This document shows, one piece after another, positions 3,907 through 47,971 of a stretch of DNA of 64,000 nt. The stretch comes from a virus, in the IMG/VR virus record IMGVR_UViG_3300027973_000043, positions 1-64,000 of that record; one strand, 5' to 3'. Every line of letters starts with the position of its first letter. Position 1 is the stretch's first letter. The notes beneath the pieces were generated by a model. It had not been told where the DNA came from. It saw only the letters and a program-made list of their open reading frames with translations, and did not search any database. Both the position numbers and the translations under genes were made by a program.

Positions 3907-4997
3907 GAGAATAAATGGTCTAATATGTTATAATCTTCGTTATCAGGAACGTTTAGCATTAATGGCCCAACAGACGGAGATACATATGGTGGTTCAAATT
4001 CACATTCTGTTAAGAGATATTTAAATCTTTGTGGGCAGTCTTTTTCACCTATATAAAGCTCATTTATAGGTAATGCCTCAAAGCAATCATTGCATAAGTT
4101 TGCTGCACAAAATTCAATGTTCTTATAATCGTGATAACTCCAGCGTTTATTTCTTATTTTAAAAAAGAATCGTCCACCAGTATAGTTTGATATATTACGA
4201 GGTTCAAATTGAACAAGAACATTGTTTGGAATATTCAAAAAATTACGTTGAACAAAAAGGTTATATTTTACAATAGCTGTTTCATATTGATACACATATG
4301 AATGAAACATTTTTAAATCAGTTTGGCTTAATTTGATTAATTCAGCAGATTCAAAAGAATCTGTGTTAACATTATAATAAACATAGTTTACTATTTCTGT
4401 CATTGCATCTATACCAGAGATGTTTAAGCTTTCTTTTCCATATTTTCTAAAAAGAGAGTTGAATACAACAATAAGAGATTCTAATATATTTTTATAACTT
4501 AAGAAATCATAAATTTCACCAACAGTTACAGAATAGTTTGCTGCAAGTAATTCTTGAACTTCTGGTTTATATTCTCTAATTCGTACTCCTGCAAGACCTT
4601 CTGCACTATAATTTTTACATAAAAAGTCGCAACGCATTATTTGTGTTGGAGAAAAATTTGAAGACGGAAAATTATCATTTAACCATGTTTCAATTTCTGT
4701 CATATTTGCTACACAGTTGAATGTATTTTTGTAAACAACCATAATAGGTTCTTCCCAATATCCACGAAGGTTATAAACTAAATCGGAACTTCTTTTCCAG
4801 TTTGAGGAATTTGATGCTACTAATGTTGAAAATGAATTAAGCGAGGACAACAATGCAGATAAAGTATTGGTCATACTATTCCATTTGTTTGAATCGGAAT
4901 AAAGATGGTCTATTCGAACATTTAATTCGTTCATATTCGAATTAAATTTCTGTAAACTATTTCCTAGATATTCATATTGAGAAATTTGTTGAATCAT
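3903..4997 (-). CDS. Putative virion structural protein, paralog of 4999..5706
   Basis: Start reassigned to MIQQISQ; shares the E.(L/V)G.SL...N.N...L ... NS.NW ... PI...Y ... W.N...P pattern with its neighbour. Confidence 0.55.
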   Translation of the reverse strand: MIQQISQYEYLGNSLQKFNSNMNELNVRIDHLYSDSNKWNSMTNTLSALLSSLNSFSTLVASNSSNWKRSSDLVYNLRGYWEEPIMVVYKNTFNCVANMTEIETWLNDNFPSSNFSPTQIMRCDFLCKNYSAEGLAGVRIREYKPEVQELLAANYSVTVGEIYDFLSYKNILESLIVVFNSLFRKYGKESLNISGIDAMTEIVNYVYYNVNTDSFESAELIKLSQTDLKMFHSYVYQYETAIVKYNLFVQRNFLNIPNNVLVQFEPRNISNYTGGRFFFKIRNKRWSYHDYKNIEFCAANLCNDCFEALPINELYIGEKDCPQRFKYLLTECEFEPPYVSPSVGPLMLNVPDNEDYNILDHLFS

Positions 4998-4998
4998 T

Positions 4999-5706
4999 TT
5001 AATTATAAAGTGAAGAGGAGTAAACCCATCTTGAAACAGTGTCATCAACAATATATTTTAAACCTACAAATTCGCTTACATATCTATCAGGAAGTTGAAC
5101 GTCTAGTGTTTGTGCTCCGCAATCAACAGTGCCATTAGTAAAGCCTACTTGTGTGCCTTTACCAATACACGAACACGAATATCGAACTTTAACACTTTTT
5201 TTACCTGTTATTTTAGATTGTGAAAGAACACGATTCAATTCTGAATAAAGAGGTGTGAATATATAAAGTTCTTGACCAACAATAAAGTTAAAACATGTTC
5301 CGCTAAAAACTGGTAGTGTTTCGTTTATCCAATTTGTAACAACAGAGATAAGATCATTTGTTGCGCCATCAATATTAAATTCCGAAGCATAAGGATAAAT
5401 GAGAGAAATAGGCTTTAACCAAACAGAACTTAAAGTTCTAACACTGTTATAAGTATCTGTCCAACATCCTGAATTTGTTTTAACAAGATTCATGGTACTC
5501 ACCCAATTTGCACTGTTTTCACTAAATTGATTATAAATTGAGTTCCATAAACTTGAGGCACTATATTCAAAATTACAAGTATAAATGTCTAATGCATTGA
5601 AATTGTAGTTTATTGATGATAATGAATCGCCTACGCTCTCATAATCCTTAATAGGGAAAACTATTTGATTGTTTGTTATTTTACAAATTTGTCTTGGGTA
5701 ATCCAT
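4999..5706 (-). CDS. Putative virion structural protein
   Basis: YESVGDSLSSINYNFNAL N-terminal motif; paralog of the downstream gene. Confidence 0.55.
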   Translation of the reverse strand: MDYPRQICKITNNQIVFPIKDYESVGDSLSSINYNFNALDIYTCNFEYSASSLWNSIYNQFSENSANWVSTMNLVKTNSGCWTDTYNSVRTLSSVWLKPISLIYPYASEFNIDGATNDLISVVTNWINETLPVFSGTCFNFIVGQELYIFTPLYSELNRVLSQSKITGKKSVKVRYSCSCIGKGTQVGFTNGTVDCGAQTLDVQLPDRYVSEFVGLKYIVDDTVSRWVYSSSLYN

Positions 5707-5716
5707 TTTATATTAT

Positions 5717-8700
5717 TTAGCAAGTAGATACACAATCTGCAAAAACAAAATCAGGAAGAACACAACAATCTTTTTCAAAATCTTTCCATGTGAAAATATG
5801 TCCAGATAAGTTACCGCATTCAGTGTCATGCCAAGAAAGAGGAAACAAGCTGTTACACTGAAGTTGTTCATAATTCCAACAAATTTCAGAGTGATTACCG
5901 CCTCGACCTTCTCTAGTTGTCCACCATGCAGAGTATGCACTAAGATGATTACTTCCTATTATTTTAGAGCTTGTCATTTCTTTCCAAGAAACAGGATTTT
6001 TATCTAATGTTGGTAATTGAATACTATCAATATAGTGATAGCTCCATCTCCACTGAATATTATTATTGTTATTTGGAATCGAGAATGTTGCAGAAATATT
6101 ATCTTTTAATTCTTCTACATTAGAGTATAAGTTTTCAATTCCACGGTTTATAGTATCATAAAGAACAGGTTCATTTGTTGCAATAAAAATATCGTGATCT
6201 GTTATTGCACTCGGAGTGTATGCTGTTGTGGTCTGATTAATTACTCTGTAATATCTATCTAAGTCTACTATTAAGCGTTCTTCGATTCTACCATTTAGAA
6301 GAGAAATGTTGTCATGTATTTTCTTAAATGAATCGTTGTAAATATAATCCGTTACAAATTCATTTTCATTTATAAAAATACTATTCCAGTTAAAACCAGA
6401 AAGAGACTCGTTATTATTTATAACTTTATTAATTTCGATAAAGTCAACAAACTTAAGAATGTAATCGCTGAACACTACATAACCATGAAACTCATCAAAT
6501 ACAATATCAACTACATTATCATTAAATGTATTTTCATTGATAAATGTATTATTAATAGTATATTTGGCTATGTTTTTACCATTTACTATATAAATTATAC
6601 CTTCATGTAAAGTACTTAAAATTGATTTTGTGCTTCCAGAATGTGTTATATTTTCTAAAACATTACCAAATTCATCCATTAATATATTAATGCTGTTTTG
6701 TGTAGATACACAAAACAAACCATTTTTTTCAGAAATGCTTAATGGATTGTTATTATCAAAATTTGAAATTGATATATTTCTGATCCAATTTAAGTTTTTA
6801 TTATAAACTTTAATAATGGCCGAATCACTGTCAACTACATAAAGATTTTTCTTATTATCTAAGCAGAAATCTACTGGATTATTAAATTTGGTTCGGTCTT
6901 CTTTACTGCCAACTCCACCCCAATAATGAGTTAATTCAATATCAGAAGGATTGTTTATATCAAAGTTACAAACATATATTATTTTTTTAGTATTATCAAG
7001 AACATATAGTCTTTTCTCAACGCTTAGATAATTTAGTTTTACAGGGTTTAATAAAACTTCTGCATCACTTATTCTGTTTGTTGAGAATAATTTAGATGGA
7101 TTTTCTGAAATATCAAAAATTTCAATATTATTTCCGTTAAGAATGATTGCCTTTTCATTTACTATCTGAGCACTACGAAGACTATAAAACAAGTCATTTT
7201 GAAGGTTTTCAGCAGCATATTGTGTGTGCCACTTAAAGTTACCAAAACGTGTTCCAAGATAACCACCATATGCTTTTGGGAAGTTAATGTTATTAATTGC
7301 ACAAGATGCACTCAAGTAATATATGTTAGTCTTAAACTTATCAAAAGAACTATTAAGCGTACTTGCATATTGCCAATCATTAGGCTTTACACGAACACTA
7401 TCTAAATTATAAGGTAACTCTAACTTTTCATAAAATGCTCTTGAGATATTAGAATCGTAATTTTCAAATGAATTTTTCACAGAAATAAAATCTTTCCAAC
7501 TTGCTACAACAGTTTCACCAGTGTTCAATACTCCTGTAAGAGAAGGTGTTTTTGAGCCTTCTGTAGAGTAAGTTGTTGTAAAGTATAAACTACCAGAAAG
7601 AGGATAGCTAATTGATCCTTCACCGTTATCAAATGTGAATGACTGAAAGTTTATAAACGGAACACTTATAAAGTTCTTATTACTACCGTTATAGAATGTT
7701 ACAGTTTCACCTGCGGAAACAATGTTTTTCTCACAGTAGAGTTCTAAGTTAGGTCCATTGTAAGCCGAAAGACCTAAGATATTCGAAGACACTGGATTGC
7801 TTGTTGAACAAAAATCAAAACCGTTTATTGTTACTGATGCGTTTCCGCTAAGAAAAATTACACATTTGTTAAATGAATTTTCATTAATAATAAAATCAGA
7901 ATCTTCGATTCCAATGTTAATTAATGCATTAAATACAGAACGATTATTTTGAACAAGTTTTGTTTGAACAAAATCTGCACTACTTAACACGATATTGAAT
8001 GTATAATCGGTAATATCAAAATTACCAGAGTTTATTGTTGCGATTAATCGAGGAAGTGACGAATAAAGATTTGTATTAACAACATTATTTGTTAGCTCTA
8101 TACTTACAGAGGGGTTTGGAAAATCTAAAAATGAAATTCGTTGACGATAAACATTACTATTATTAGAAGATGCAAAATTAAAATTAGTAATAGGGTCAGT
8201 TTCTAAAAATATATCATTAAAAGCACTAACACGTATGTTGTTATTTGCAGAAACATTCTGATAAGAAACTGGAATAATTATTTTATTTGAATTTGACTCT
8301 GCTACAATATTACCTACATTCCATACATATTTGGTAAAACCTGGACTTGCAGAAAAATAAAAATTTTCAGTATGACACGGTTTATAAGATGTCATACCAT
8401 GTGAACTTGTATACATGCTGAAAACTGTATTTTCATAACCGCTACCACACTTTCCATAATCTACAACAGAATTTGCTGCTTTTCTTGTTGGATTATATTG
8501 ATTTTCAGGAAAACCTATATAGTTTAGATTTGTAAGAGAACTCAAATAATAGAAGCACACTTTGTCTTCAAAATTATATCTTTTAAAATCTCCTTGAAAA
8601 GGTTTTGCAGATAATGCAGAAACTTGAACACAAACACTACTCAGTGTTGATAATGAGAAATTAAAATTGTTTCCTGTTCCATATAAGAAAGGAACTAGGT

Positions 8701-42762: not shown

Positions 42763-42840
42763 AGGCGCGAATAATATAAAGAGGAAAGAAAGGTTGTCAA
42801 ATAAATAAAATCATGAACTTTAAAACATCAAAAAAAAAAT

Positions 42841-42902
42841 AAATACTATAAATACATATATCATATGGATAATTTATCTCTAATATACGAAAATAGTTTA
42901 CA
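42841..42902 (+). repeat. 62-bp direct repeat, copy 1 (late promoter plus MDNLSLIYENSL leader)
   Basis: One mismatch to 43658..43719. Confidence 0.95.
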
Positions 42903-43625
42903 TAATAGAATTCGTCGCGATGTCGTTCAAGAATTTATATATCAAAAAACTAATAACAAACATCAAAAAGCAGAATATATGATTGAACATGTATTAAATG
43001 TTTCAGAGTTAGAATATTAACAGAACAAGGATTTTTAAAGAAAATAGGTCAAGGTGTTAAAAATATTGCTAAAAAAGCTGCACCTTATGCAGCAGCAGGA
43101 TTAATGGCAGCAGGTGCAGCAAGAGGTGAAACTCATATGGAAAATCCGCAGGCAATGAGAACTAATCAATATCAAGAACAAGATTTTAGGGTTAAATCTT
43201 TTGAATCCCAGGTGGAATCTTTAAGAGAAGTGGAGCAGAAATGGTCCGGGGTTTTAAACGAAATACAAAGAATAAATCGAAACCTGACATTGTCCAAGAG
43301 AAATAATCCTGAACTCGAACTTCGTCAAAGAGAAAATATTTTAAAATTACAAGACGTACGCAATAACATAATTATTGGATTTACTGACGATATTGAACAG
43401 GAAAATGAAATTCGTCGCGAGTACAATGAATTGCGTCCCGAGGACAGAAAACCAGAGTTAACCGTGTCTGTAAAAAGATTAAATCAAATTATAGAAGGTA
43501 TGAAGTTAAATACTTCTAATTTTGATAATTTGGGAGATTATGTTGATAAAATGTCTAAAGCAGTTAGTGCATTAGAACAAGAAGCGATGAACATCCAAAA
43601 AATAATAGGTGGGAATGGATACTGA
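42865..43625 (+). pseudogene. Coiled-coil protein gene with a one-base frameshift near 43013
   Basis: MDNLSL ... SELEY* continues in the -1 frame as ILTEQGFLKKIG ... into ORF 43104..43625. Confidence 0.6.
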
Positions 43626-43657
43626 AAGTAGCGCGTTGAACTGAGAAAGATAGTAGA

Positions 43658-43719
43658 AAATACTATAAGTACATATATCATATGGATAATTTATCTCTAA
43701 TATACGAAAATAGTTTACA
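43658..43719 (+). repeat. 62-bp direct repeat, copy 2 (leader with no gene body)
   Basis: Encodes MDNLSLIYENSLQITAIVI*. Confidence 0.95.
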
Positions 43720-43755
43720 AATCACCGCAATTGTAATATAAATATAAATATCATA

Positions 43756-43910
43756 CCGTTCTTTTAAACTTACAAAAATCTAAAGTCATATTTTTAAGAT
43801 ATACACTCTCGATTTTTTGTTAAATTCTTCGTTCAACGACGGGCTAACCAAACTTGCGTTTGATGAACTCCCATCTCCAGAAGCGTCAATTCGGGAAGAA
43901 CTTTCCCTAT
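43756..43910 (-). ncRNA. Probable TnpB omega-RNA scaffold overlapping the tnpB 3' end
   Basis: Position at the right end; GACGCTTCTGGAG ... CCCGTCGTTGAACGAAGAA resembles IS607 TnpB 3' regions; limits approximate. Confidence 0.55.
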
Positions 43911-45006
43911 AAATTTGTTTTAGATTCAAACTCGCATTTAAATCTCTGTCTATTTTCATATCGCATACCTTACATTCAAATATTCTGTCTGTCAACTTCA
44001 AATCTGAATTTTTCCATCCACAACATGAACATAGTTTAGAACTAGGATAAAAAGTATCTGCAAAGATAACTTTTCTATTATTCCATTCTGCTTTGTAAAT
44101 GATTTGACGGCGAAATTCGTGAAGTCCAACATCACTAATAGCTTGCGCCAAACAATGATTTTTCATCATATTGCTCACTTTCAAATCTTCCAAAACTATA
44201 ACTTGGTTTTCGTCTATAATTTTAGAAGTGATTTTATGCAAGCAATCTTTACGAATGTTTGATATGTGAAAATGTAATTTCGCTAATTTTTGTTTTGCTT
44301 TTCCATAATTTTTACTTCCTTTTTTCTTTCTGCTTAATTGTCTTTGTTTTCTTTTAAGTTTCTTTAAATTATTTTTAAGTGCTTTGGGATTTTCATAAGC
44401 TGTCCCGTCTGAGCAAGTAGCCAGAGTTTTAATCCCTAAATCTATCCCTATTACCTCGTTCTTAGCGTCAGAATGCTCTCTGTCGGGCGTTTCTACTTGA
44501 ACTGATACAAACCACTTACCCGCTCGTTTGGAGACTGTAGCAGACAATATTTTACAATCAGTAGGAATATAATCTTTCTCCGCTAATTTAAGTTTTCCAA
44601 TTCTAGGTAATTTAATACAACCAGATTCAACCGAAATTACTCCATCCAATCTAAATGATTGCTTTTCGTTCTTTTTGGATTTGAATTTGGGGAATCCTTT
44701 CTTACCTTTGACCTTTTTCTTGCAACGGATGAAGAAATTTTGAAATGCTTTGTCGCAATCTCTTAGTGCATTTTGCGGCGAAGTCTTGCTTGAATTATAC
44801 ATCCAAGGAACATCTGATTGTTTTAGCTTGTTTAACTCTCTATGTAATTCAATAGCATTAGGAATCTTTTCTTTTTTATCAAACGATTCTTTCTTATTAG
44901 ATAATGCCCAATTATATGCCCATCTAGCACAACCAATATGCTGCAATAACAAGTTTTGTTGCTTGTTATTGACATCTAGTTGAACTTTATAGGCGCGTAA
45001 AATCAT
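43786..45006 (-). CDS. tnpB: RNA-guided endonuclease TnpB
   Basis: RAYK ... RWAYN, GIDLG, VLEDL, CSCC..CKVC, DRDLNA; RuvC D-E-D intact. Confidence 0.95.
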   Translation of the reverse strand: MILRAYKVQLDVNNKQQNLLLQHIGCARWAYNWALSNKKESFDKKEKIPNAIELHRELNKLKQSDVPWMYNSSKTSPQNALRDCDKAFQNFFIRCKKKVKGKKGFPKFKSKKNEKQSFRLDGVISVESGCIKLPRIGKLKLAEKDYIPTDCKILSATVSKRAGKWFVSVQVETPDREHSDAKNEVIGIDLGIKTLATCSDGTAYENPKALKNNLKKLKRKQRQLSRKKKGSKNYGKAKQKLAKLHFHISNIRKDCLHKITSKIIDENQVIVLEDLKVSNMMKNHCLAQAISDVGLHEFRRQIIYKAEWNNRKVIFADTFYPSSKLCSCCGWKNSDLKLTDRIFECKVCDMKIDRDLNASLNLKQIYRESSSRIDASGDGSSSNASLVSPSLNEEFNKKSRVYILKI

Positions 45007-45728
45007 TTTAATCTTTCTAAACAAATATCGTAATACTCTTGTTCCTTTTCAATCCCAATGAATTGACGATTGAGATTTTTAGCGGCAAGTAAGGTTGAGC
45101 CTGAACCAGCACAATTATCAAGAATTAATTCCCCCTCATTACTATATGTTTTAATCAGATACTCTAAAAGTTCTACGGGTTTTTGAGTTGGGTGCAACTT
45201 TCCGTTACGATTTGGGACAACTTTAAAATCTAAAACAGAACTAGGTTGAACAAAATTTGGGTCATATTTCTTTTTGATTTTATCTAGTTTTACATGATTA
45301 GAATCGCCACAATAATGGTCATAATTATAACAAGCCTTGCCAACACCAACTCGCTCTTTCATAATAGGGTTATATGTAGGTTGTTCGCGATGGAAAACAA
45401 GAATGTCTTCGTGATATTTCATTGGTCTATACTTTGCCGCCGACATTCCAGTTGGAACGTTCTTATTCCAAACTAAAGGATACTTAAAATTTTTTCTGTT
45501 GGATAGTATCAAATCCGTGGTAAATGGTTGACTGGCAAATAATACAACTGCCGCATTAGACTTGCATATTCTGTTGTATTGTTCCCACAATTCATCAAAC
45601 GGAATAATTACATCCCATGCACAAGAAATAGTGCCATATGGTAAATCACATAAAATCATATCTATGCTCCCGTCTGGAATATTTTTCATCAACTCTAAAC
45701 AATCTCCATACCAAATTTGTTGTTTCAT
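45003..45728 (-). CDS. Beta-class N6-adenine/N4-cytosine DNA methyltransferase
   Basis: GDCLE, CDLPYG, HPTQKPV and LDNCAGSGST motifs. Confidence 0.93.
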   Translation of the reverse strand: MKQQIWYGDCLELMKNIPDGSIDMILCDLPYGTISCAWDVIIPFDELWEQYNRICKSNAAVVLFASQPFTTDLILSNRKNFKYPLVWNKNVPTGMSAAKYRPMKYHEDILVFHREQPTYNPIMKERVGVGKACYNYDHYCGDSNHVKLDKIKKKYDPNFVQPSSVLDFKVVPNRNGKLHPTQKPVELLEYLIKTYSNEGELILDNCAGSGSTLLAAKNLNRQFIGIEKEQEYYDICLERLK

Positions 45729-46357
45729 TCTGCCTCCTCCTTTTCTTTCTTTTTACGGTTCTGACTTGAACGCCTTCCGTAAATTTTCGCCGAAAATGAT
45801 GCCATCAAAGATAGAATATCTTCCACCAGTTCGTTTTCAAAACTCTTACTCATTACCTCTTCAACCTTCTCAATCCTAACTCCATAAGAATTAAAATAAG
45901 ACAAAAGATAATTAAAACAAAATCTCGACAATCTATCTTTATGTTCAATTAAAACCACATCAATTTCTTTCTGCTCAACCAATTCAAAGAGTTTCTGCAA
46001 TTTCTTACGATTATCATTCATTCCCGAACCAACTTCGTCAAAAACAGCAATGATAGAATAACCGCGCTTTAATGCTTCCGTAGTCATTCTGCCAACTTGT
46101 CTTTCTAAATCACCTTTGGTCTTCTGCTCATGCGAGCTAACGCGACAATAAATGCCCACACGCTTACCATCTGACACTTTAACGGGTTCTACATAGATTC
46201 CTGCCAACTTCTCAATATCGGCTCTATAATAACGTCTATGACCACCTTCTGTATGAAATGGTGTTAATTTGCCTTCACGCTCCCAATTTCTAAGGGTTTC
46301 GTCAGAAACGCCCAAAATAGATGCAGCATCGCTGATTGATAGAATCTTTTTATCCAT
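45725..46357 (-). CDS. tnpA: IS607 transposase (MerR-type HTH plus serine recombinase)
   Basis: LGVSDETLRNWE ... GGHRRY; YCRVSS ... DLERQ; EHKDRLSRF; ELVEDI ... FSAKIYG. Confidence 0.95.
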   Translation of the reverse strand: MDKKILSISDAASILGVSDETLRNWEREGKLTPFHTEGGHRRYYRADIEKLAGIYVEPVKVSDGKRVGIYCRVSSHEQKTKGDLERQVGRMTTEALKRGYSIIAVFDEVGSGMNDNRKKLQKLFELVEQKEIDVVLIEHKDRLSRFCFNYLLSYFNSYGVRIEKVEEVMSKSFENELVEDILSLMASFSAKIYGRRSSQNRKKKEKEEAE

Positions 46358-46526
46358 TTTTGTCTATCAATCCTTTCTGTTGAAATATTCTAAACCATTC
46401 GTCATAGATTCGTTGAAATTCCTCTATTGTTGGGACTTCATCTAATTCAAACGGAATATCATGGATAACTCCATCATCTGTTTCAAATTCTGTTGTTGTA
46501 ACTCTTGTAATCATTTTTGGCTTCAT
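46350..46526 (-). CDS. Small acidic ORF (58 aa) upstream of tnpA, missing from the ORF track
   Basis: MKPKMITRVTTTEFETDDG ...; stop overlaps the tnpA start. Confidence 0.6.
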   Translation of the reverse strand: MKPKMITRVTTTEFETDDGVIHDIPFELDEVPTIEEFQRIYDEWFRIFQQKGLIDKNG

Positions 46527-46746
46527 ATATATTTACACTAAAAGTTTAGATTTTGGAAGAAAAAAGTGAAAATATTTTAACTTTCTTTAGATATTTTAGA
46601 TTATCGGGTAACTGTTGTCAACCCGCCACGCCTCTCCACGATGCGAAATTTGGCGGGTTTTTTATATCAAAAACATTAAGCAATAAAAAATCCTTTTACA
46701 GAAAACATTTAAATTATGAGTGATATATATTGGCTAAACAAGGACT

Positions 46747-47004
46747 CTAAAGCTTTTTTACTTTTTTCTTTCTGCTTTTTTTCATAACTTCCTGATTGAG
46801 GCGAATTTGAATATTTTTAACTTTTGAATTTAAAATGTTGCATTGTGTAGAATATCCCGGTGCATAGTGTGGACGACCTCCGCTCACTGAAACATATTTC
46901 TTTCGGCATTCATTTAATTCGTCTTGAATTTCTTTGTATTGAACTAATAATTCTTTAATAGCAGGAGAAGAATTAAAATGAATAATGTTCAAAAGATTTT
47001 TCAT
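46747..47004 (-). CDS. Hypothetical protein
   Basis: Coupled ORF. Confidence 0.5.
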   Translation of the reverse strand: MKNLLNIIHFNSSPAIKELLVQYKEIQDELNECRKKYVSVSGGRPHYAPGYSTQCNILNSKVKNIQIRLNQEVMKKSRKKKVKKL

Positions 47005-47510
47005 TAAATTTTACAGATAAAAACATTTTTGTGAGAGTTCAGAAAAATCTTCTCGATAATTTCTTCTACAAGATTCCAATCAGCACCACCAAGACCACAT
47101 CCAATTTTATATGGAATATAAATGTCTGTTAATGTATTGGCTACATCTTCTAAACCAATACCACTAAAATAAATAGTTTCTTTATCATCACCATAGAAAT
47201 TTGTACTTGCGATTCTTTTGAAACCTGTAATGAGTGCAGAGTATTCTGTTTGTTGTTCTTTTGTTCCAATATTGTCTTGTCCAAACAAATTAGCAACAAT
47301 AACATTATGAGCTACATTCACTTGAAACACGCTTCCTAATAGCATAATTGGTAGTTTTTGACGTTTGATATGAGCACGATATTCATCAGCGTTTTTGGGC
47401 CATTTGTGTGCAATTGCACCTGCAAGTCCACCAACTGCTCCAATGCAATTAACAGAATGAACGATTACTCCTTTATCTACTGTAAGAATGTCTTTATTGA
47501 TTATATTCAT
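47004..47510 (-). CDS. Macro-domain (ADP-ribose processing) protein
   Basis: DIL ... HSVNCIGAVGGLA ... ANLFGQ ... PYKIGCGLGGADW. Confidence 0.88.
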   Translation of the reverse strand: MNIINKDILTVDKGVIVHSVNCIGAVGGLAGAIAHKWPKNADEYRAHIKRQKLPIMLLGSVFQVNVAHNVIVANLFGQDNIGTKEQQTEYSALITGFKRIASTNFYGDDKETIYFSGIGLEDVANTLTDIYIPYKIGCGLGGADWNLVEEIIEKIFLNSHKNVFICKI

Positions 47511-47971
47511 AAATTTAAAAGTTTTTTATTTTCCATAATATTTCCAACCACTTCCATAGTTGGCAGCGGAGTAAATGGCCATGAACTACTTTCCGTTCCA
47601 TCAAAATGAAGAAGCACCCAACCATAATGCTCCCATGCTACTAAGTCAACAAAATCTGCTTTTGGATCATCAAAATAGTATTTAACAATGTCACCTTCAT
47701 AAATTTCAACTCCTTTGGGGTCTTTTAATCCAGTGTATTGCTGGATAACATATCTTGGTTCTTTGATTAGTTTTCCATCTTCCCAATAATAATCATTAGC
47801 AGGTGAAGCAGAAAAATTCTCACCATTCTCGTCGCAAGTTTCAACATAATCAACAACATTACCTGTGAATGGGCAAATTGTCCAATTGCTGTTGCAATGA
47901 AAACTGCTGCTGTTTTCTAGCCACTTTTTATTCTGTTTATCCCAAATGCGGAACTTTATTTGTCTATTCAT
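47507..47971 (-). CDS. YopX-family protein (copy 3)
   Basis: IKFRIWDK, QYTGLKD..G.EIYEGDI, EVVGNI.EN. Confidence 0.88.
   Translation of the reverse strand: MNRQIKFRIWDKQNKKWLENSSSFHCNSNWTICPFTGNVVDYVETCDENGENFSASPANDYYWEDGKLIKEPRYVIQQYTGLKDPKGVEIYEGDIVKYYFDDPKADFVDLVAWEHYGWVLLHFDGTESSSWPFTPLPTMEVVGNIMENKKLLNL

Follow-up and report, generated by a model that had tools for sequence, protein, structure and literature searches.

Insertion sequences of the IS607 family, among them IS607 of Helicobacter pylori, IS1535 and ISC1904, are usually treated, as are TnpB elements, as minimal selfish units. In ISDra2, TnpB has a Y1 transposase as its partner and TTGAT as its target-adjacent motif (TAM). 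Here, we describe an element in a stretch of 64,000 nt of viral DNA (the window; positions 1 to 64,000 of the IMG/VR virus record IMGVR_UViG_3300027973_000043, which is 82.5 kb in full with an estimated completeness of ~31%), and we think it likely to be an IS607-family transposon, still intact, that belongs to uncultured freshwater T4-like phages and has a DNA methyltransferase as its passenger; that it is a real cargo-bearing mobile unit we hold with high confidence. The rules described for IS607 elements are a GG core dinucleotide, a TGGG TAM, a scaffold ending UCGG and retention driven by TnpB (10.1101/2023.11.20.567912). Cargo is described as rare in some serine-recombinase TnpB transposons (the "Ser-3" branch), where the main text of the survey names a helicase, a WhiA/meganuclease-like protein and unknowns (Altae-Tran et al., PNAS 2023, PMC10691335).

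A reading of the letters of the window by themselves (below, the sequence-only reading) had placed an element at 43756-46623, with the gene order small open reading frame (ORF), tnpA, methyltransferase, tnpB. Four ORFs were found on the minus strand in just this order, all of them intact, and the two ATGA overlaps claimed for them, at 45725-45728 (tnpA/methyltransferase) and 45003-45006 (methyltransferase/tnpB), can both be read in the sequence. The span proved right to within the G's that the element shares with its target, as homology with independent copies begins at 46624 and stops at 43755/43756. The features of the locus are as follows.

43756..46624, minus strand: whole IS607-family element, 2869 bp including the shared G's; starts GGGTTGACAACAG and finishes GTAAGTTTAAAAGAACGG
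46527..46624, minus strand: left end, with the invariant GGG, a sigma-70-type promoter and three ATCTAAA repeats
46526..46350, minus strand: acidic ORF of 58 aa, upstream companion of tnpA
46357..45725, minus strand: tnpA (210 aa), IS607-family serine transposase
45728..45003, minus strand: DNA methyltransferase (241 aa), PF01555, beta-class amino-methyltransferase, the passenger
45006..43786, minus strand: tnpB (406 aa from ATG), RNA-guided nuclease family
~43941..43756, minus strand: omega-RNA scaffold, recognized by covariation; covers the final ~155 nt of tnpB and extends as far as the right end, with GAACGG as its last letters
43736..43755, minus strand: predicted guide and target flank TATGATATTTATATTTATAT, directly 3' of the scaffold end, by analogy with the CboIStron IS607 TnpB
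46622..46658, plus strand: abiF-type RNA hairpin (Rfam RF03085), phage sequence outside the element

The 58-aa ORF overlaps the start of tnpA by 8 nt (ATGGATAA), and tnpB is also open from an alternative upstream TTG at 45024. Because the genes overlap, they are probably translationally coupled. Purifying selection acts on all four, with ratios of nonsynonymous to synonymous substitution (dN/dS) of 0.04-0.22: 0.22 for the 58-aa ORF, 0.046 for tnpA and 0.109 for tnpB, each measured against the sister element L083, and about 0.04 for the methyltransferase against the phage gene L003. TnpA scores 194.9 bits against NF033518 (IS607 transposase; cut-off 110) and joins an N-terminal MerR-type helix-turn-helix (HTH; PF00376) to a resolvase catalytic domain (PF00239), with RVSS at residue 72. 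The 58-aa ORF had no match in Pfam, NCBIfam or PHROGs, and the atlas clusters that match it are unnamed and mostly viral. In relatives down to 41% TnpA identity it immediately precedes either tnpA or a cargo gene that lies ahead of tnpA, and by this comparison is a constant companion of tnpA in the lineage of the element. The statement that canonical IS607 elements consist of tnpA and tnpB thus holds with an amendment, the 58-aa ORF being constant here as well.

The ends of the element were set by nucleotide comparison with independent copies, whose flanks beyond the two breaks are unrelated. All ten aligned left-end copies begin GGGT, with GGGTTGACAACAG as the shared start, and all 13 right-end copies finish GTAAGTTT..GAACGG, each in different flanking DNA; when nine left flanks and eleven right flanks were compared, GGG was the sole common feature. 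The ends are not inverted copies of each other, so that there are no terminal inverted repeats. At the left tip, the promoter TTGACA-17-TAAAAT (46621..46593; 11/12 matches) was the best in the region in a promoter scan and is conserved across copies. The left end also holds three ATCTAAA repeats (46601-46595, 46592-46586 and 46551-46545), which we regard as candidate TnpA binding sites, and there is one inverted copy near the right end. A general enrichment of ATCTAAA over the whole window was considered and dropped (42 found against 34.7 expected), and it is the local cluster at the left end alone that is noteworthy.

Further evidence on the ends comes from an element-free allele, for which the junction GGCGGG|TATGATA on the minus strand had been predicted. 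We searched with a 25-nt stretch of the right flank, which had no match among viral contigs and a single match among metagenome contigs, in the contig L150. The flanks in L150 are 95-97% identical to the window, and window position 43757 is joined directly to 46621, with the whole element missing. In the orientation of the element this junction is GGCGTGGCGGG|TATGATAT, or in a longer reading CATCGTGGAGAGGCGTGGCGGG|TATGATATATTTATATT, and it is the predicted empty site. The empty site reads GGG|T, the occupied left junction GGG|TTGACA and the occupied right junction AACGG|T(ATGAT); the two occupied junctions have only GG in common, in keeping with the GG crossover dinucleotide of IS607 transposases, and there is no larger target-site duplication. 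The methyltransferase lies inside the ends set by the empty site and therefore moves with the element. Another contig, L082, which is 76% identical on the rIIA-like neighbor gene, was rejected as an empty site, as it is without window 46667-42763 altogether.

Contigs of four sequencing runs (X1, X3, X4 and X5) were also compared with the window. In run X3, an independent sample, one contig bridges the occupied left junction (46292-46670). No contig of the four runs joins 43757 to 46621 or holds a circle junction; contigs drop rare variants, so this result is silent on excision. Two low-depth joints in X1 (43784->44902 and 44373->46820) were disregarded, their sides being shorter than 30 letters. 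Copies of the element in at least ten contexts, and its presence or absence between phages 97% identical in the flanks, are consistent with transposition catalyzed by TnpA.

TnpB scores 334.8 bits against NF040570 (cut-off 100), also matches PF01385 and PF07282, and can be aligned with ISDra2 TnpB (PDB 8bf8 and 8exa) over residues 4-364 (E 9e-66). In this alignment the motifs GIDLG, VLEDL and IDRDLNA retain D189, E273 and D355, in agreement with the RuvC D-E-D residues claimed for it earlier, and a CxxC...CxxC zinc finger is present. For the omega-RNA, the last 250 nt of 13 copies were aligned and folded with RNAalifold, which gave a consensus of 33 pairs, 17 of them with compensatory changes; 95.5% of cells are paired, compared with 81.2% in shuffles (0/500 reach the observed value) and 29-55% when the partners are slid. 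The scaffold overlaps the 3' end of tnpB and stops exactly at the right end (43756), as expected of an omega-RNA, and in Rfam no family matched it at gathering score. The covarying scaffold ending at 43756, taken with the published IS607 rules, fits the prediction that the guide is the flank beyond AGAACGG. The candidate TAM is GGG, which is invariant at the left junction of 10/10 copies and present at the empty site, and cleavage by TnpB would then be guided by the TAM and the omega-RNA together.

The passenger scores 106.6 bits against PF01555 (N6_N4_Mtase) and has its motifs in the beta-class order, DLPY (motif IV, residue 28) coming before AGSGST (motif I, residue 207), with a variable stretch in between; among PF01555 alleles it is the center that differs, while the ends are conserved. 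Its best solved relatives, CcrM, DpnA, M.RsrI and M.MboIIA, are adenine enzymes, and DLPY, with its D in motif IV, is what we take to be the adenine type. The predicted enzyme is thus probably an N6-adenine methyltransferase. The gene is 88% identical to the free-standing phage genes L003, L002 and L012 and 80% identical to L004, all four of which stand alone in unrelated phage contexts. We kept 80 of 143 methyltransferase loci found, and none of the 80 has a tnpA or the small ORF; L012 alone has a tnpB fragment, 3.5 kb away. The contig of L012 is the same as that of L121, where 4937-5818 is a deletion derivative of the element. This retains 63 bp of the left end, which abut the 3' half of tnpB; the omega-RNA region and the right end follow, and the free-standing methyltransferase 88% identical to that of the window is 3.5 kb away.

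The element and its sister L083 are 96% identical in tnpA and 90% in tnpB, but their methyltransferases are only about 50-53% identical; at the nucleotide level these genes agree at 75% over the first 19 codons and 81% over the last 61, with 46-58% in the center. ATGA overlaps are kept at all cargo-bearing junctions and, together with the conserved gene termini, indicate that cargo ORFs have been swapped as whole units, probably through recombination in the conserved ends of the methyltransferase genes. In the 82.5-kb record, the sole PF01555 match is the methyltransferase of the element, and PF00145, PF02086 and PF05869 have no match. With a single methyltransferase in the record and an empty allele at hand, it follows that the empty-site relative differs by one methyltransferase.

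Relatives were collected through methyltransferase, TnpA and TnpB queries, and the TnpA search of genome contigs gave at least five loci. As close relatives we counted those with TnpA, or its remnant, at least 74% identical, which makes 14 copies (the window, L083-L091, L111, L112, L113 and L126); L111 is an uninformative fragment and was set aside, leaving 13 that can be interpreted, the window included. Eight of these 13 hold methyltransferases within the frame, either between the small ORF and tnpA or between tnpA and tnpB, and the cargo belongs to PF01555 (three central-region types), PF02086, PF05869 and PF00145.

Window: none between small ORF and tnpA; PF01555 between tnpA and tnpB; all genes intact
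L083: none between small ORF and tnpA; PF01555 between tnpA and tnpB; all genes intact
L113: small ORF/tnpA position not retained; PF01555 of the L083 type between tnpA and tnpB; remnant with the tail of tnpA (aa 161-210) and the first 47 aa of tnpB
L090: none between small ORF and tnpA; PF01555, frameshifted, between tnpA and tnpB; LAGLIDADG gene splits tnpA
L086: PF00145 between small ORF and tnpA; PF01555 between tnpA and tnpB; LAGLIDADG gene splits tnpA, and PF05869, PF02086 and PF00145 replace tnpB
L091: none between small ORF and tnpA; PF05869 between tnpA and tnpB; tnpA broken
L112: PF01555 between small ORF and tnpA; none between tnpA and tnpB; tnpA truncated, LAGLIDADG gene
L126: PF01555 between small ORF and tnpA; PF02086 between tnpA and tnpB; tnpA (198 aa) and TnpB (410 aa) both open

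The other five (L084, L085, L087, L088 and L089) have the plain order small ORF, tnpA, tnpB. The tnpA-methyltransferase-tnpB arrangement of the L083 type occurs in two different phage contigs, L083 itself and the remnant L113. The sequence-only reading had allowed that all close relatives might lack the methyltransferase, or that the true ends might exclude it. L083, L090, L086, L113 and L091 carry one in the same position, and both the empty site in L150 and the homology breaks in the 10 left-end and 13 right-end copies place it inside; with cargo recurring in 8/13 close copies, the claim of a cargo-bearing element stands.

Further, the frame itself is not inherited as one piece, since L126 has a TnpA 97% identical to that of the window but a TnpB only 68% identical, which indicates that modules have been shuffled between elements. 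In a TnpB tree of 16 rows, from which the partial L121 and L122 and the tnpB remnants of L113 and L086 were left out, the four elements whose methyltransferase lies between tnpA and tnpB form one group (support 90/94), and the two that have one ahead of tnpA form a separate clade (100/100). The more distant relatives (19 loci, TnpA 41-49% identical) mostly keep the small ORF and tnpA. A TnpB-like ORF follows tnpA in 14 of the 19 (one Pfam-confirmed), and an M24 peptidase, YopX or unnamed ORFs occur between the two; the remaining five loci have no TnpB-like ORF, and in four of them tnpA is followed by a helicase-like ORF (L095, Pfam-confirmed; L099, truncated; L107; and L109). Given this variety, the space between tnpA and tnpB is a general cargo position, which in the clade of the window is filled chiefly by methyltransferases.

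Several of these copies have features of their own. The copy in L086 (3757-10141) is an island of five methyltransferases on an IS607 skeleton with short tnpB remnants only, in the order left end, small ORF, C5 methyltransferase, split tnpA, PF01555, PF05869, PF02086 and second C5 methyltransferase. LAGLIDADG-type endonuclease genes interrupt tnpA in L086 (5580-6635), L090 (5566-6597) and L112 (5295-6470); L086 and L090 share one break point, after RIEKVEE, and in both the LAGLIDADG ORF runs in frame into the displaced tnpA tail, SSQNRKKKEKE, at its end. These features suggest that a single site has been invaded repeatedly, by a homing endonuclease or by an intron or intein-like insert. L126 (JAXDCF010000002.1), a 4.8-kb contig labeled as part of a Patescibacteria metagenome-assembled genome, holds a complete two-cargo copy and may be either a mis-binned phage fragment or a hint of the host. 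L104, a distant relative, has at 4787-7409 two different tandem tnpA genes, 48% and 34% identical to that of the window, ahead of tnpB.

The carrier can be placed by the 638-aa gene adjoining the element, which encodes an rIIA-like product (phrog_612) and thereby marks the carrier as a large T4-like phage. The runs that hold carrier sequence are freshwater and lake metagenomes, run shares below 0.2 being disregarded as evidence of habitat, and on this gene and these sources the carrier is an uncultured freshwater T4-like phage. Megablast of 42800-47600 against deposited phages returned a 35-nt match of chance size and nothing more, and the closest TnpA among 50,697 deposited phage records is 41% identical.

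On the reading that we prefer, the element would be transcribed as one operon from the sigma-70-type promoter at its left tip, through the 58-aa ORF, TnpA, the methyltransferase and TnpB; processing of the 3' end of this transcript would yield the omega-RNA. TnpA would excise and insert the element at GG within GGG, as published work on IS607 suggests. TnpB with its omega-RNA would recognize the empty site, in which GGG precedes the sequence of the right flank, and would thus cut alleles that are free of the element, whether left by excision or brought in by a sibling phage during co-infection; recombinational repair would then copy in the whole element, passenger included. The methyltransferase would modify the phage DNA against host restriction and so repay the phage for carriage.

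One alternative concerns what the passenger does. Dam methylation times the transposition of IS10 and IS50, and the methyltransferase might likewise serve the element, by methylating its ends, TAM or target and so timing transposition, or by shielding the occupied site or the phage genome from TnpB. The tight placement of the gene, which shares an ATGA overlap with each of its neighbors tnpA and tnpB and is hence presumably co-expressed with them, would suit such a role, as would the predominance of methyltransferases in the cargo of the close clade (8/13). However, the ends, the left GGG and the right CGG stay constant while the cargo spans four methyltransferase families and three PF01555 central types, five of the 13 close relatives have no methyltransferase at all, and distant relatives carry a peptidase, a helicase, YopX or unknown ORFs instead. 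Moreover, GGG/CCC has no adenine on either strand, and DLPY is presumably of the adenine type. Constant ends with such varied cargo make a role in the element's own targeting unlikely, and we consider service to the element quite improbable. An effect of the methyltransferase on TnpB target recognition, which the sequence-only reading had raised with a hedge, is disfavored on the same ground, the varying cargo including C5-cytosine enzymes. The comparison favors a benefit to the phage, whose DNA would be protected from restriction, as the simplest reading, and we lean, if only slightly, towards anti-restriction as what the passenger provides.

A different objection concerns mobility. The element may have inserted once and become immobile, its methyltransferase now a plain phage gene and its tnpA, tnpB and omega-RNA decaying or repurposed, and several observations are in keeping with this. 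The 82.5-kb record holds a single copy, and no contig of the four runs joins the flanks across the element. Five of the eight methyltransferase-bearing copies are decayed, in that tnpA is interrupted by a LAGLIDADG gene, carries a frameshift or is cut short, or tnpB is missing, with the tnpB-less island of five methyltransferases in L086 as an extreme; much of the lineage may no longer transpose. Other points weigh on the preferred reading more generally. Support for expression is weak: in run X4, a metatranscriptome, contigs cover 43690-44118 and 45737-45888, but neither the strand nor the level of a transcript can be read from contigs, and such libraries can contain DNA. In the sole empty allele found, two extra nucleotides (AT) stand at positions 9-10 of the predicted target; the guide would therefore pair with the first 8 bases only, and homing into the L150 allele is doubtful. 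The exchange of cargo could be the work of ordinary phage recombination and no property of the element, and the deeper forks of the TnpB tree do not resolve how its two methyltransferase-bearing groups are related, so that we claim no order of cargo gains. A relic nevertheless accords poorly with four intact ORFs with their catalytic motifs kept, with the low dN/dS of tnpA and tnpB against L083, with the conserved structure of the omega-RNA and with presence or absence varying between phages 97% identical in their flanks, and we judge it improbable. Least credible of all is that a resident phage methyltransferase came to be flanked by separate insertions of tnpA and tnpB. The closest methyltransferases, at 80-88%, are indeed free-standing, and the 80 kept loci have no frame gene beyond the distant tnpB fragment of L012, but in L150 all four genes, from the small ORF to tnpB, are missing at once and the junction is a clean GGG (a chimeric L150 assembly would revive this alternative), both ends match those of canonical two-gene relatives, and sister elements at other loci also have a gene in this position.

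A bolder extension of the transposon reading, which we offer as speculation and think rather unlikely, is that the lineage forms a gene drive, natural and RNA-guided, by which DNA-modification genes spread among freshwater phages during co-infection. TnpB and its omega-RNA would cut element-free sibling genomes, and repair would copy in the element with whichever methyltransferase is resident at its two exchangeable positions. If so, anti-restriction alleles would be traded on a fixed transposon frame, much as integrons trade cassettes, and the 2-nt insertion in L150 would be a drive-resistant target.

The insertion site has a structure of its own. The element sits exactly at the 5' edge of the abiF-type hairpin, the first CCC of which is the complement of the insertion GGG. 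The hairpin scores 44.1 bits against RF03085 in the window (gathering score 37) and 40-50.6 bits in all six other loci searched; the motif is intact at the empty site (L150 1355-1391), and its 22-nt core is identical in 19 other viral contigs (L131-L149; 14 distinct contexts). By eye, and from ORF lists only, several such hairpins lie just upstream of terminase-like ORFs. In Clostridioides difficile, abiF motifs act as the RNA antitoxin of the AbiF abortive-infection system (10.1101/2025.04.15.648962). No abiF (Abi_2) gene was found near the hairpin in the 82.5-kb record, the only signal being a sub-threshold PF07751 match of 15.7 bits (cut-off 25.6) 35 kb away, at record 81598-81837. Hairpins that stand alone in lytic phages could serve as antitoxin decoys or be no more than terminators. 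Beside the right flank there is a second presence/absence polymorphism, in that window 42903-43657 is missing from the 97%-identical L150, and contigs of runs X3 and X5 skip ~42977-43571 at a repeat of ~50 nt. The 173-aa ORF of this segment (43104-43625, plus strand) had no PHROG match.

Against the view of IS607 and TnpB elements as minimal units, the phage element would be an intact counterexample with a likely useful gene. Its value lies in being an intact exemplar whose ends are defined, for which a natural empty site and a predicted guide are at hand, and whose sister elements show cargo exchange, and it raises the questions of whether RNA-guided homing spreads beneficial cargo, how phages acquire or swap anti-restriction methyltransferases and what the 58-aa partner of TnpA does. 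The compact natural layout of transposase, cargo and TnpB may also be of interest for engineering.

By its type of transposase and its junctions the element belongs to the IS607 family, but it exceeds the usual content of tnpA with or without tnpB by two genes, and we therefore file it as a cargo-bearing variant. With its RuvC D-E-D residues, its zinc finger and a structured omega-RNA at the tnpB 3' end and right end, it agrees with TnpB/OMEGA systems. Like the IS607 family and the Clostridium botulinum IStron (10.1101/2023.11.20.567912), it has a serine transposase with a MerR-type HTH, a TnpB and a right-end omega-RNA; it likewise lacks inverted repeats, has a GG core at both junctions and has a scaffold ending CGG. 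The TAM is G-rich in both, TGGG in the IStron and, as predicted, xGGG in the phage element. Unlike these, the phage element has a 58-aa ORF ahead of tnpA and a methyltransferase passenger, has no group I intron, and is carried by large uncultured freshwater phages. With the Ser-3 transposons (PMC10691335) it has in common that helicase and LAGLIDADG genes also occur in its relatives. Methyltransferases are absent from the main text of that survey ("methyl" occurs 0 times), although its supplements may list such cargo, and in the literature searched we found no description of methyltransferase-carrying IS607 elements in phages.

The TnpB resembles that of ISDra2 (IS200/IS605; 8bf8, 8exa and 8h1j) in fold family, and its RuvC D-E-D residues and zinc finger align, but its partner is a serine recombinase and its target motif is G-rich. 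The passenger, in turn, resembles the orphan beta-class adenine methyltransferases of phages and bacteria (CcrM, DpnA, M.RsrI and M.MboIIA) in its PF01555 domain, in motif IV preceding motif I and in its variable center, and differs from them in being encoded inside a transposon, with predicted coupling to tnpA and tnpB. The nearest parallel for a virus-borne transposon with a DNA methyltransferase is the Mariner elements of giant viruses, which have a DDE transposase, eukaryotic virus hosts and a protein endonuclease of restriction type in place of an RNA-guided one (Bao and Jurka 2013, PMC3627910).

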